DNA of 64,000 nucleotides from a virus (IMGVR_UViG_3300033075_001214:6052-70051); one strand, 5' to 3'. Shown: positions 9,431-57,432, numbered from the stretch's first letter. Notes: a model not told the origin generated them from the sequence alone. Numbers and translations are program-made.

Positions 9431-9458
9431 GTTATCCAACGTTTTAATGTTGGATAAC
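9431..9458. repeat. Terminal palindrome of array 1 (distal half of the split att site)
   Basis: GTTATCCAAC-8 nt-GTTGGATAAC, perfect 10-bp inverted repeat. Confidence 0.85.
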
Positions 9459-9904
9459 CGTTCTGCCTCTATGTGCAGTGCGTTTATTACAGATAAGTTG
9501 AACAATGAAATACTACAAGAAAATAAAAAATTTTAAACCAGCGCGTGGGCGATTCACCTAAATTAAAATGGAAAACATACAGCTATCACAAAACCTCACA
9601 GTTAATTACTTGACGACTATACAGCAAAGCCCCATGAAGGTGAGGTTCCATTGTACCTTTTTTGGAGAAGAGTTTATTGCGGATGTTTCAAAAAAGAATG
9701 TTGACAAAGATTGGGCAAGCATTGAGGGAGAAGGGCCAAGCGAATTATTTGACTCATTCACTTCACAAATGGAAGATGAGTATTGGGATAAGGTGAAGGA
9801 GTTGTTTAAAGAGTTCGAGAGCCAGGAGGTTTAAAATTTTTTATTTTCTCCGCACACATGAAGCTACAACGCACAGAACTAAGCATTGCACATAGAGGCT
9901 TGTT
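9456..9904. repeat. attC-like site 1 with a gene-containing loop
   Basis: AAC-cgttct-GCCTCTATGTGCAGTGC (9465-9481) pairs with GCATTGCACATAGAGGC (9883-9899)-tt-GTT; 16/17 bp. Confidence 0.8.
9568..9834 (+). CDS. Hypothetical protein inside the attC-1 loop
   Basis: ORF track, 88 aa. Confidence 0.75.
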   Translation: MENIQLSQNLTVNYLTTIQQSPMKVRFHCTFFGEEFIADVSKKNVDKDWASIEGEGPSELFDSFTSQMEDEYWDKVKELFKEFESQEV

Positions 9905-11132: not shown

Positions 11133-11211
11133 ACAAACTTAGGATGTGTGAGGGGTTTGCGCGGTGTGTTTATTGGTGCCGCCTGAGGGGCCACAATGCA
11201 CTATACACGGT

Positions 11212-11301
11212 GTTAGCGGTAGTGACAAAACGAAGCGTTGGCCAAAAGTAGGAAGAAGCTCTGCGCCTGCTTTTTTCAAGGGTTTTGGCATTACCGCTAA
11301 C
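11212..11301. repeat. Matched GTT...AAC cassette ends (non-coding interval)
   Basis: GTTAGCGGTAgTGaCAAAAC / GTTTTGgCAtTACCGCTAAC, 18/20 inverted repeat. Confidence 0.85.
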
Positions 11302-11328
11302 AAGTAATTTGTAATTTTCTATTGTAAC
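11299..11328. other. attI-like site 1
   Basis: AACAAGTAATTTGTAATTTTCTATTGTAAC, 22 bp upstream of the recombinase start; 26/30 identical to the reverse complement of 55820-55849. Confidence 0.7.
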
Positions 11329-11350: not shown

Positions 11351-12181
11351 ATGAATATTTCTGCTCACATCGACTTCTTCAAACAGGAAATGAAACGTAG
11401 GGGATTAGGTAATTCAACCATTCAAAGCTATCCGTCCTACGTCAAAACATTCTTTGAACAATCAAAGGCAGATCACCCAAAGAATATTCATGAGCAAGAA
11501 ATCAGAGAGTTCTTAGGCAGATTCACGGAGCCCAATACACAACGGGCCTATCATTCGGCAATCAAAAAATTCTATGCTATCTGTTTGAATCAGGAACATA
11601 AGTTTCGATACATACCTTATTGCAAAGCCAGCAAAAAACTTCCTATTGTTCTATCCGTTGAAGAAATTCAACGGATGTTTGATGTTTGTGAAAATCTTAA
11701 ACATCGTGCTATCCTAGCATTGCTTTATTCATGCTCGTTACGCTCGTCAGAATTAATCAATCTAAAATGGACTGATATCGACCGATCAAGAATGATTATT
11801 AACATCCGACAGGCCAAAGGAAAGAAGGATAGGCAAGTTGGATTAAATCAAAAACTCATTGAAGTACTGGAGAACTACTATCGAAAGTACACTCCAAAGG
11901 AATATGTTTTCAATGGTCAGTTTTCTTTACAATATTCCAAAGAAAGCGTCCTGCAAGTTATCAAGCAGTTAGCCGATAAAGCACACATTGACAATAAACG
12001 TGTCTACACTCACCTCATGCGTCATTGCTCCGCTACACACATGCTGGAAAGCGGAGTTGACTTGAATCTCATTCAACGGATACTTGGTCACTCGTCTGTT
12101 AAAACGACCGCGATATACGCTCACATTTCGCATAACTTAATTTCACGTATTAACTCCCCGTTGACCGCCATCAACTTATAG
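11351..12181 (+). CDS. int: Tyrosine recombinase, IntI-related, short form
   Basis: R131, K156, H221-x-x-R224, H247, Y256; N-terminal SAM-like domain; KKLPIVLS.EE, KGKKDR and C-terminal SPL motifs. Confidence 0.92.
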   Translation: MNISAHIDFFKQEMKRRGLGNSTIQSYPSYVKTFFEQSKADHPKNIHEQEIREFLGRFTEPNTQRAYHSAIKKFYAICLNQEHKFRYIPYCKASKKLPIVLSVEEIQRMFDVCENLKHRAILALLYSCSLRSSELINLKWTDIDRSRMIINIRQAKGKKDRQVGLNQKLIEVLENYYRKYTPKEYVFNGQFSLQYSKESVLQVIKQLADKAHIDNKRVYTHLMRHCSATHMLESGVDLNLIQRILGHSSVKTTAIYAHISHNLISRINSPLTAINL

Positions 12182-55446: not shown

Positions 55447-55756
55447 CCTGTATTGTTCTCCAATCTGGAAGATTCGAAAACTTACATCCATTGCTCAACG
55501 GGTGCCCGTGCTCGATAGCCTGGTTGATGCGCAGGTAGCTGAAATCAATCGCTTAAATAGTATTGTAGCCGGAGATGACATCATTCTCAAGGCAAGGGTA
55601 AAGCAAATAGGCCTTCTCGTAGATGAAAAGACTAAACTAAACGAACTCAATTCCATCCAGGTAAAACTCACCGATCAGGAGAAACGCGACAAGCGCCAAT
55701 GGAAAGGAATTGCTATTGTGCTGGGGGTGCTATGTTTGGTGCAGGTGTTTTATTAG
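55361..55756 (+). CDS. Spanin-like protein (signal peptide, coiled coil, C-terminal TM)
   Basis: Hydrophobic N- and C-termini; last gene of the lysis cassette. Confidence 0.45.
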   Translation: MKINVLKIVLFLIGAMLIWTPLSAQSSDSLYCSPIWKIRKLTSIAQRVPVLDSLVDAQVAEINRLNSIVAGDDIILKARVKQIGLLVDEKTKLNELNSIQVKLTDQEKRDKRQWKGIAIVLGVLCLVQVFY

Positions 55757-55819
55757 AATTTCTGCTTGTGCCAATTGACGTGAACAGGAAAAATTTTTGT
55801 ACGCTTTGATTGTCTGTAA

Positions 55820-55849
55820 GTTACAATGATAAATTACAAATAACTTGTT
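55820..55849. other. attI-like site 2
   Basis: GTTACAATGATAAATTACAAATAACTTGTT; 26/30 identical to the reverse complement of 11299-11328. Confidence 0.7.
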
Positions 55850-55894
55850 ATGCACAATTGGCGATTGCATACGAGGCAAAACTTCCTCGCGGAG

Positions 55895-56251
55895 CTACCC
55901 GCCATAAAGTTCATCTCCTTTTTTCCAAGTGTCGTACTTGCCATCCCGCACGTTTTGCCCAGCCGCACCATCGCCAACAGTCGGCTGCCGGACAGGTTTG
56001 TTTGTGGGTAGCCAACCTTCTTCACATGGTAGTCCACATTGATTACAACACCACACGGTTGTCTCCCCAACCCTGTCTTTGCATTGGCAGCCTTGCATAA
56101 CACCATGTTTATGCGAGTTTTGCTCAGTGTGCAGTTTCCAAAGTGAATCCAACGCGCCATGTATAACATAATCTCCTACTTGATGTGAGAATGTTATTTC
56201 TTTACGAAGTATCTCCGCGCACCGTTCTTTAAATTCTTTTTCTGTTATCAT
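55895..56251 (-). CDS. Cassette gene that starts inside an attC loop; Cys-rich C-terminal half
   Basis: 118 aa; codon 51 (Val) is the GTT/AAC core at 56101-56099; CQC...CCNQC..C. Confidence 0.7.
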   Translation of the reverse strand: MITEKEFKERCAEILRKEITFSHQVGDYVIHGALDSLWKLHTEQNSHKHGVMQGCQCKDRVGETTVWCCNQCGLPCEEGWLPTNKPVRQPTVGDGAAGQNVRDGKYDTWKKGDELYGG

Positions 56252-56299
56252 AGTGTGTAGTTTTTAAGTCGCAAAACCCTCATAAACATTTGATGCGTT
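56099..56299. repeat. attC-like site B (201 bp)
   Basis: AAC-acc-ATGTTTATGCGAGTTTTGC (56105-23) pairs with GCAAAACCCTCATAAACAT (56271-89)-ttgatgc-GTT; 17/19. Confidence 0.85.
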
Positions 56300-56309
56300 A
56301 TGTGCAAGG

Positions 56310-56531
56310 CTACAATCCGTTTTCAAATTGAAGTAAGTTTTTAAGACCGTATCTGTTCAACCAATCACTTGTAAAAAAGTCAATGTTATTTAAACCACAA
56401 AACTTAAATTCATCAACCGATTCTTTCGGAACTTTTTGATTTGTGTATGCTTCAAATTCAGTTACACAATCATTTAATTCCATTTTGTTATATTTTCTTA
56501 TTAGTTCTATTGCTAAAAAAAGTTCTTTCAT
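56310..56531 (-). CDS. Cassette gene, hypothetical, 73 aa
   Basis: Lies between matched ends GTTATGTGC (56297) and GCACATAAC (56571-79). Confidence 0.75.
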   Translation of the reverse strand: MKELFLAIELIRKYNKMELNDCVTEFEAYTNQKVPKESVDEFKFCGLNNIDFFTSDWLNRYGLKNLLQFENGL

Positions 56532-56576
56532 TTCGTTTTCAAATTAAATTTAGTGCTGATAATCCGCCCAGCACAT

Positions 56577-56700
56577 AACAGCGGTTTGTAGCAAAAAGGG
56601 CTGACGTGCTACATTCATCATTTGTGGTTCTAATCGGCAGTAGTGCAAGGTTGAAACAATATGATTCTAAATCCCTTTCAGCTACAAGCCGCAAAACGTT
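56577..56700. repeat. attC-like site A (124 bp, classical size)
   Basis: AAC-a-GCGGTTTGTAGC-aaaaaGGG ... CCCtttca-GCTACAAGCCGC-aaaac-GTT. Confidence 0.88.
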
Positions 56701-56726
56701 AGACAACATTGAAGCAGTTGTCTAAC
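56698..56726. repeat. Terminal palindrome of array 2
   Basis: GTTAGACAAC-9 nt-GTTGTCTAAC; overlaps the stop codon of 56722..57432. Confidence 0.85.
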
Positions 56727-57432
56727 AACGCTTCATCCAGATATTATCCTCCTTCATAGCATAGTACGTCACGCCTTCCACTTCGTACTCCCAATTCGAA
56801 TCGTGCTGGAAATACACATGATCTCCAGGACTCAGGTCTGGCCGTGAGCGAATATGGCGCACCGTTCCTTCAAGCATCTTATGAATTGGCTCCACAGATA
56901 GAATAAACCCACTGTCTACCGTTGCGTCTTCGTGTGGCTTTACTAACACCCAACCGGCCTGCATCCGTGTCCCTACGCAAATCAATGCGTCTGGCAGGGC
57001 TTTAAATACGGAATAGGACTCATGCTCTTCATGCAGGTTCTCAGGCTCCGTCACATTGGGATGAAAGTAAACGGTCTCGCCTACTTCCGCATCCACCAGT
57101 GCTCCGATATCCGCCAGCGATAAAAAGTCAATTTGCTCTTTGGTAGAAGGATAATATTGAATCGTAGCCGACTTTCGGCCCATTAAGGCCATAGTCTGCA
57201 GGGTATCATGCCCTACATATATCCGGTGGTTAGGCACTCCTGGATCGATCGGTTGATAATTCGTGTCACTGTAAGCCGTTGGTTTAGCTATAACTAAGCC
57301 TTTCCGGACCTTGCGCATATACCGGTCGCGCTCCTGATCAATGTACCAGGCATTATTCCGGCCTATCAGGTTGCCTTCCTTGAGGTCGTCAAATACGTTG
57401 TCAACACGGATTAGATAGTGGTCGTAGAGCAT
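56722..57432 (-). CDS. Protein with two tandem GroES-like domains
   Basis: GWVLVKP...SGFIL...EGTVRHI...PGDHVYF...YEVEGVTYYAMKEDNI; an N-terminal copy with VGETVYFH. Confidence 0.7.
   Translation of the reverse strand: MLYDHYLIRVDNVFDDLKEGNLIGRNNAWYIDQERDRYMRKVRKGLVIAKPTAYSDTNYQPIDPGVPNHRIYVGHDTLQTMALMGRKSATIQYYPSTKEQIDFLSLADIGALVDAEVGETVYFHPNVTEPENLHEEHESYSVFKALPDALICVGTRMQAGWVLVKPHEDATVDSGFILSVEPIHKMLEGTVRHIRSRPDLSPGDHVYFQHDSNWEYEVEGVTYYAMKEDNIWMKRC

Follow-up and report, generated by a model that had tools for sequence, protein, structure and literature searches.

The 974 bp between positions 55757 and 56730 are probably an acquired block that carries a two-cassette array of an integron-like system of Bacteroidota phages. 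The window analysed here comprises 64 kb (64,000 nucleotides) of a 70,051-bp single-contig virus record, and the block sits between two of its operons. The interpretation is partly supported: comparisons among viral sequences speak for the structure of the array and for its evolutionary mobility, and its activity and its service in trans by a recombinase encoded some 44 kb away are putative. The window offers a compact, fully defined test case, consisting of a pair of cassettes, a single terminal motif, and a candidate enzyme.

Layout and surroundings of the block

The rightward block of large ORFs ends in a group of small ORFs (the so-called lysis operon), none of which matched a Pfam family significantly, and the last stop codon of this block lies at 55756. 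The operon that faces it is transcribed leftward and terminates with a Cpn10-like gene (56722-57432, minus strand). A sequence-only reading of the stretch had placed an integrase-less cassette array at this convergent junction, composed of an attI-like motif, two attC-like sites, paired cores, and a terminal palindrome. All of these elements were found where it had put them, between the rightward and leftward operons. They are listed here together with the two integrase-proximal features discussed below.

55757-56730, no strand: whole insert, 974 bp relative to the closest relative, L171 (blastn)
55820-55849, minus strand: 30-bp attI-like terminal motif, starting with the AAC of the left core and containing TTGTAA direct repeats
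55848-56297, plus strand: cassette 1, 450 bp (Cys-rich module, TAAC core, hairpin B)
55895-56251, minus strand: ORF118, a mosaic protein read through the core, with its N-terminal 50 codons in the loop of hairpin B
56094-56305, plus strand: hairpin B (attC-B), composed of TAAC, 3-nt spacer, 19-nt arm, 147-nt loop, arm, 7-nt spacer, and GTTA
56298-56698, plus strand: cassette 2, 401 bp (ORF73 module, leader, hairpin A)
56310-56531, minus strand: ORF73, cargo, with 20 homologues
56532-56579, minus strand: conserved leader between the core and the ORF73 start codon
56569-56707, plus strand: hairpin A (attC-A), 70 bits and E 3e-13 against the covariance model R1
56698-56726, no strand: terminal 10/9/10 palindrome, fold z -4.2
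11299-11328, plus strand: second copy of the 30-bp motif, 22 nt before the integrase start
11351-12181, plus strand: IntI/XerA-like tyrosine recombinase, 276 aa (PF00589, PF13495)

Read along the plus strand, the 30-bp motif (on the reverse strand) is followed by GTTA at 55847, the Cys-rich coding module, TAAC at 56098, hairpin B, GTTA at 56297, ORF73 and its leader (on the minus strand), TAAC at 56576, hairpin A, and GTTA at 56698. On this strand, a cassette begins with the TTA of one GTTA core and extends to the G of the following one; its first element is a cargo ORF encoded on the opposite strand, after which come, usually, a conserved leader of ~45 nt, then a TAAC core, and finally an attC-like hairpin. 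Transcription of the cargo is directed at the attI-like motif, as had been noted. The left core, GTTATGCA (55847-55854), has an inverted copy, TGCATAAC, at 56094-56101, and the core GTTATGTGC (56297-56305) has its inverted copy, GCACATAAC, at 56571-56579. The 19-nt arms of hairpin B (56105-56123 and 56271-56289) are 89% complementary and separated from the cores by spacers of 3 and 7 nt; those of hairpin A lie at 56581-56600 and 56673-56692, with spacers of 1 and 5 nt. The GTTA core at 56698 doubles as the first arm of the 10/9/10 palindrome, which we read as an empty GTTA...TAAC module.

Short inverted repeats prove little alone, since those of 8-9 nt are common in this DNA (27 pairs in a 1.1-kb stretch). 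Chance as an explanation for the repeats described here was ruled out by the 70-bit family score, by covariation, and by a 96.8% identical 401-bp copy elsewhere, all of which are presented below. No recombinase was identified among the 10 ORFs scanned between 53334 and 57888, no transposase was found among the ORFs scanned in the window, and no integrase lies within 44 kb of the array. ORF73 and ORF118 matched no Pfam, PHROG, or NCBIfam family.

Proteins that are 76-95% identical to the Cpn10-like product sit on syntenic contigs, which permits comparison of the same junction in related phages. In the closest relative, L171 (Cpn10-like protein 95% identical, nucleotide identity 88%), blastn homology with the window ends at 56731 and resumes at 55756, with 95 unrelated bases between these points in L171. 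The array is also absent from L118-L125, where the Cpn10-like gene either overlaps the last lysis gene (L121 and L125), is separated from it by 116 nt (L118-L120), or is separated from it by a gap that a different 112-aa gene occupies (L123). A search with R1 returned no matches in the loci of these relatives (L118-L125 examined) or in L171. Given that L171 and four further relative lineages are without the array, we treat 55757-56730 as an insertion, and the alignments suggest that 974 bp were gained here, or lost elsewhere. Content thus varies among relatives, as would be expected of the mobile platform that had been proposed, and the invariance between related phages that the earlier reading had named as a refutation was not observed. 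The outer ends of the block do not form clean core junctions, and the block is larger than its two cassettes; owing to these ends, the block itself may have come by another route, and it may have been acquired whole, bringing its own terminal motif.

The palindrome lies within the insert, is missing in relatives, and covers and supplies the stop codon of the Cpn10-like gene. The product of this gene (56722-57432) has 236 aa, the last 75 of which match Cpn10/GroES (PF00166, 2e-05). Comparison of L171 1145-1237 with 56722-56733 of the window reveals that the Cpn10-like protein of L171 bears a 28-aa acidic C-terminal tail; the insert truncates this tail in the protein of the window, the palindrome providing the new stop codon.

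The hairpin family and the cassette junctions

Hairpin A belongs to a large covarying family. A blastn comparison of the region with phage records gave one unexpected match, of 56 nt at 96%, in a 635-kb uncultured phage in which similar elements lie between small ORFs. A 17-nt pattern taken from the leader retrieved 114 viral contigs, dozens of which share the plan TAAC, one base, stem, five bases, GTTA. The plan of the family as a whole consists of TAAC, a short spacer, a stem, a spacer 4 nt longer, and GTTA. Of the 26 elements listed, 22 have offsets that are 4 apart when left unforced, and the same asymmetry is seen in both hairpin A (1/5) and hairpin B (3/7). Alignment of 25 family elements is good at both ends; RNAalifold returned no structure from the MAFFT alignment because the loops misalign, and the structure was supplied by hand and then tested for pairing and covariation. 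In the specified structure, 88% of cells are paired (shuffles give 70.5%, and sliding the partner gives 26-37%), and 10 of the 12 stem pairs have changed on both sides, with the four core pairs invariant. Judged by eye against the integron core consensus RYYYAAC / GTTRRRY, GTTAGAC fits and GTTATGT and GTTATGC do not; TAAC/GTTA is invariant.

From this attC-like hairpin family we built the covariance model R1, of which hairpin A is the only significant match in the window; hairpin B and the integrase-proximal structures were missed in the same search. Among viral loci, R1 produced 161 matches in 58 loci, always on a single strand within any locus and in runs of as many as 13 copies. The carriers include IMG/VR contigs, cultured Flavobacterium phages, two jumbo phages, and Bacteroidota MAGs (contigs of Chitinophagales, Flavobacteriales, and other Bacteroidota). 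In the cultured Flavobacterium phage vB_FspS_filifjonk9-1 (L165; MN812206.1, 5044-15111), nine family hairpins lie between small leftward genes, and three of the genes between hairpins are annotated as DNA methyltransferases. Rfam searches gave no match at E up to 1 for 55500-57000 of the window, and none at gathering score for L043, L087, and L165.

Hairpin A folds as predicted on both strands (z about -2.1). Together with its leader it recurs in copies of 93-95% identity in L030, L055, L094, and L027, with unrelated flanks on both sides, and hairpins in general assort independently of both neighbouring ORFs. In front of unrelated ORFs in dozens of contigs the leader is conserved at >90% identity, and it is 96% identical to that in the jumbo phage LR745206.

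The cargo modules recur in the same manner. At least 24 contigs, representing six different gene neighbourhoods, carry a homologue of ORF73 with 96% identity (P0215). At the nucleotide level, 288 bp of the window (56583-56296) are 97.6% identical in L172, L174, L176, and L177, and 292 bp (56583-56292) are 97.3% identical in L175. A stretch of 401 bp that includes hairpin A (56692-56292) is 96.8% identical to L173 2115-2515, which belongs to a different array; this independent copy reproduces the boundary that had been predicted for the 401-bp cassette. All six loci with the ORF73 module (L172-L177) are R1 arrays, and their neighbouring genes differ. Downstream of the module, similarity ends directly after the TAAC core, where five different hairpins follow across the loci; upstream of the hairpin of the module, it ends at the preceding TAAC core. 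The Cys-rich module (92.8% identical) and hairpin B (95.4% identical) are both present in L179 in other contexts, with divergence of the latter directly after the GTTA core. In that locus the Cys-rich module overlaps with the beginning of a 90-aa gene (1468-1740) that is called separately and whose start codon appears, by position, to be the ATG inside the core. Altogether, the four modules of the block each recur at about 93-97% identity in unrelated arrays. With the family match and the covariation, these recurring modules bear out the earlier proposal that the region is a genuine cassette array without an integrase of its own.

Breaks at the cores are a general property of these arrays. An unrelated cassette that is common to L008, L038, and L065 displays the same core-junction behaviour, and in an all-against-all megablast comparison 40 of 96 HSP ends fall at a core, compared to 11% at random positions. 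The five bases beyond the 4-base core were also examined for complementarity. Across a cargo module they are perfectly complementary in 28 of 51 cases (mean 3.8 of 5), compared to a mean of 2.0 across a hairpin and of 2.2 in shuffled pairs (maximum 2.7 in 2,000 shuffles). Cores that match across the cargo module, and not within the hairpin, are what a circular intermediate leaves behind when it is opened inside its core, as in integrons. Homology breaks off exactly at the 4-base cores, and the flanks there have no similarity that could sustain homologous exchange.

Both cores of a hairpin behave as breakpoints, which is not predicted by the single-crossover integron model and calls for an extra assumption. 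While breaks on the leader side can be explained by homologous exchange in the 45 nt that are shared, there is no leader between hairpin B and its module, for which reason either the use of both strands as substrates or another step has to be considered. Two stricter schemes were rejected. Canonical polarity (an ORF followed by its own attC) is at odds with the ORF73 module, which keeps its upstream hairpin in 5 of 7 contexts and has a different downstream hairpin in most, and a strict single-crossover model is insufficient, given that hairpins also part from modules at the other core.

Cassette 1 suggests that exchange at cores can also affect the interior of a protein. Homologues of ORF118 retrieved by a profile-free search are of three kinds, covering residues 1-52 only, the Cys-rich part only, or the last 29 residues only, and a few more span the first two parts. 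P0154-P0156, whose C-termini differ, share residues 1-52 at 91-96% identity, and P0151-P0153 combine residues 41-105 with other N-termini. The first junction always falls at GV(MQ), for which the core supplies the codons; of the two arms of hairpin B, one is situated in the 5' leader of ORF118, and residues 44-50 are encoded by the other. Elsewhere, the TAAC core of ORF118 appears to serve as a start codon. In cassette 1, ORF118 is thus put together in frame across the TAAC core. As this core reads GTT-ATG, in-frame domain fusion would be feasible besides whole-gene swaps.

The candidate recombinase and competing explanations

The protein encoded at 11351-12181 contains Phage_integrase and SAM_4 domains (PF00589, 8e-38; PF13495). 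It scores 201 against NF040815, the XerA/integron-integrase model (cut-off 220), and 167 bits, in two stretches, against TIGR02249, the integron integrase model (cut-off 265). Its alignment with VchIntIA falls into two blocks, between which residues 174-194 (21 aa) face residues 178-240 (63 aa); with 21 residues where IntI has 63, the recombinase is without the IntI-specific insertion. The SPL tail is kept. The family is populous (2,694 proteins at E of 1e-20 or better), and homologues with 36-82% identity occur within ~2 kb of family hairpins in five loci: L169 (77% identical to the protein of the window, with four hairpins upstream), L170 (69%, with one hairpin and an MT-A70 gene upstream), L116 (43%, with an array of six), L129 (about 40%, with six hairpins), and L147 (36%, with a hairpin nearby). 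In L169, L170, and L116, as in the window, a TAAC core and ~50 nt precede the integrase start codon, and in these three loci and at 11351 in the window the cargo lies upstream of the integrase in the same orientation. Among complete records with family hairpins, no recombinase homologue was found in MN812206, LR745206, NC_028924, or LR756502; the first two hold arrays, and the last two single or weak matches. The recombinase could simply be the lysogeny integrase of the phage.

The array and the recombinase locus are connected by the 30-bp motif, whose copies at 55820-55849 (minus strand) and 11299-11328 (plus strand) are identical at 26 of 30 positions. No further copy was found in the 70-kb genome or in any fetched locus, and the motif does not fold (z -0.1).

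Based on these observations, we propose that a tyrosine recombinase would use folded single strands as substrates and catalyse the exchange, with the I2-less IntI/XerA-like protein family encoded at 11351-12181 as the candidate enzyme. The 276-aa protein could act in trans on the array via the 30-bp motif common to both loci. Hairpins and cargo modules may lose their linkage when homologous exchange takes place in the shared leader, or when both strands are used, and the cargo would be expressed from the leader, with a putative promoter function, as well as by read-through from the leftward Cpn10-like operon.

It is important to weigh this mechanism against the view that the block is inert in its present genome, which we consider unlikely, though it is the most serious of the alternatives. 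In that case, array DNA would have arrived from another phage by illegitimate or homologous recombination, and the 276-aa recombinase would only integrate the phage or serve the locus adjoining it. Such a fossil fits the outer ends of the insert, which are not core junctions, as well as the presence of only one canonical hairpin, the complete phages that hold arrays without this integrase, and a recombinase of Xer size. It is difficult to reconcile, however, with a 30-bp motif that is common only to the array and the integrase-proximal site, or with cores that are all intact and that match at 8-9 of 9 positions on either side of each module, and the 93-97% identity of the modules to copies elsewhere indicates that exchange was recent.

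By analogy, the nearest counterparts outside integrons are the PeSLs of T4-type phages, an established precedent in which a promoter-like sequence and a stem-loop flank small accessory ORFs in variable regions and are associated with gene gain, loss, and replacement (PMC2839356, PMC4122927). If the leader and stem-loop were likewise a promoter/terminator unit, homologous recombination could shuffle the genes with no site-specific enzyme involved, and both the ~45-nt leader that is >90% identical before unrelated ORFs and the independent assortment of hairpins relative to both neighbouring ORFs would follow naturally. We nevertheless find this improbable, given that junctions on the leaderless side are exact and share the 4-base core alone, with no flanking similarity, that the cores flanking a module are mutually complementary, which is not a product of homologous exchange, and that the arrays are in physical linkage with a recombinase family. 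More doubtful still is the suggestion that a transposase or host Xer proteins move the modules as small non-autonomous elements, with hairpins as preferred targets only: while the modules are bounded by perfect 9-bp inverted repeats, occur in many contexts, and are often found in arrays without a phage recombinase, no transposase was detected among the ORFs scanned in the window, modules always alternate with hairpins on one strand, and a hairpin and its module also travel as one unit (401 bp).

Extension of the integron-like reading beyond this genome is more tentative, and we place it somewhat short of probable. According to this broader proposal, Bacteroidota phages would possess their own integron-like machinery, distinct from bacterial integrons, with an I2-less IntI/XerA-type recombinase, hairpins with a fixed 4-nt spacer asymmetry, and cargo located between cores or in the hairpin loop. 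Such machinery could carry out whole-gene swaps and in-frame domain fusions (as in ORF118), one enzyme could serve several platforms per genome, and unrelated phages, ranging from 38-kb siphoviruses to 640-kb jumbo phages, would pass around cassettes such as those of DNA methyltransferases.

Known systems and further observations

The arrays resemble integrons and CALINs in that single-gene cassettes are split by structured sites that are imperfectly palindromic and have AAC/GTT cores, each core behind a hairpin is part of the following cassette, and a related tyrosine recombinase has a SAM_4 N-terminal domain and an SPL tail. As in integron attC sites, AAC...GTT cores are conserved and a variable stem is kept by compensatory change (10 of 12 pairs), and, as at the integron cassette boundary inside the 3' core, the remainder of the core matches its own inverse core (perfectly in 28 of 51 modules). 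CALINs share the lack of an integrase and, in phages, DNA methyltransferase cargo. A CALIN is defined by at least 2 attC sites that are close together and recognized by the standard attC model, with no intI nearby; in the window, the family model R1 finds one site, and a second is supported by its structure and its homologue in L179.

Differences from integrons are nonetheless considerable. The recombinase is without the IntI-specific insertion, which in IntI reads extrahelical bases, and closely related integrases lie downstream of the cargo and co-oriented with it, whereas the integron integrase is adjacent and divergent. The cargo is inverted relative to the attC convention and has its own conserved leader, whereas integron cargo is promoterless and read from Pc. 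Spacers of 1 and 5 nt (with a constant 4-nt asymmetry) differ from the roughly equal spacers of attC sites, hairpin loops can contain coding sequence, and both cores act as breakpoints. A screen of 10,705 phage genomes by Qi et al. (2023) identified three integrons, one In0 element, and 17 CALINs (PMC9892861). In the same study, 5 of 6 phage attC sites recombined with IntI1, the exception being P12002L_attC1 (PMC9892861). The P12002L_attC1 oligonucleotide corresponds to an R1 match at L167 30001-30062, which makes this site the sole experimentally tested member of the R1 family, and one that IntI1 did not recombine.

Sedentary chromosomal integrons (e.g. those with Vibrio VCRs) also combine few hairpin types with many unrelated cargo genes and TAAC/GTTA-type cores. 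The carriers here are phages, however, and a hairpin type recurs at 93-95% across unrelated contigs, not within one host lineage. In the pdif modules of Acinetobacter plasmids, genes lie between inverted recombinase sites in Xer-dependent modules, and the enzyme is encoded elsewhere. Modules bounded by inverted sites and an Xer-type enzyme elsewhere are common to both systems; unlike in pdif modules, a hairpin of 60-200 nt brings the cores together here, and no 11-6-11 dif-like duplex sites were seen.

Integrons are considered to be devices of bacteria, and reports from phages so far consist of a few captured integrons and short CALINs that were found with bacterial attC models. In the literature searched we found no description of the R1 family, its leader, or the linked short recombinase. 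What is described here is a distinct hairpin family that forms long arrays across many Bacteroidota phages, single cassettes common to unrelated genomes at 93-97% identity with junctions at 4-base cores, and a short IntI-like recombinase family beside some of the arrays. If the enzyme acts on these sites, the system would offer a mechanism for rapid turnover of small accessory phage genes, many of them counter-defence-like, an example of hairpin recognition without an I2 domain, and a natural system for in-frame domain shuffling.

Several additional features concern cargo and the integrase-proximal locus. Cargo found beside family hairpins (L169 5576-6876, L170 241-777, L172 1144-2369, and L179 1813-2307) includes nucleoside deoxyribosyltransferase, PAPS-reductase-like, MT-A70, N6_N4 and Dam methyltransferase, and AdoMet_dc-like types, a repertoire that looks like DNA modification and counter-defence. 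In L168, in L170, and on the contig of P0080, integrase homologues lie ~60-850 nt from the starts of long contigs (29-76 kb), which may be due to breaks in assembly at repeated hairpins or to a nearby genome end.

In the window, a perfect 22-nt inverted repeat (9518-9539 and 9828-9849) surrounds an 88-aa ORF (9568-9834) and is probably a gene-in-loop hairpin of the integrase-proximal locus. A second palindrome, at 9432-9459 (10/8/10, GTTAnnCAAC...GTTGnnTAAC), has the same form as that at 56698-56726. Beside the integrase, positions 11211-11302 contain a 92-bp ORF-less unit with matched GTTAGCGGTA / TACCGCTAAC cores and a strong fold (z -4.5), which looks like an empty module; its core GTTAGCGGTAAT is also present in the arrays of L006, L018, and L038, and at an in-frame VSGK junction in P0154. 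Finally, five copies of a 21-nt motif (ATGCAAACTAATTTTTAGAAA-like) precede small early ORFs between 3988 and 7969, and may represent an early promoter or translation-start signal.
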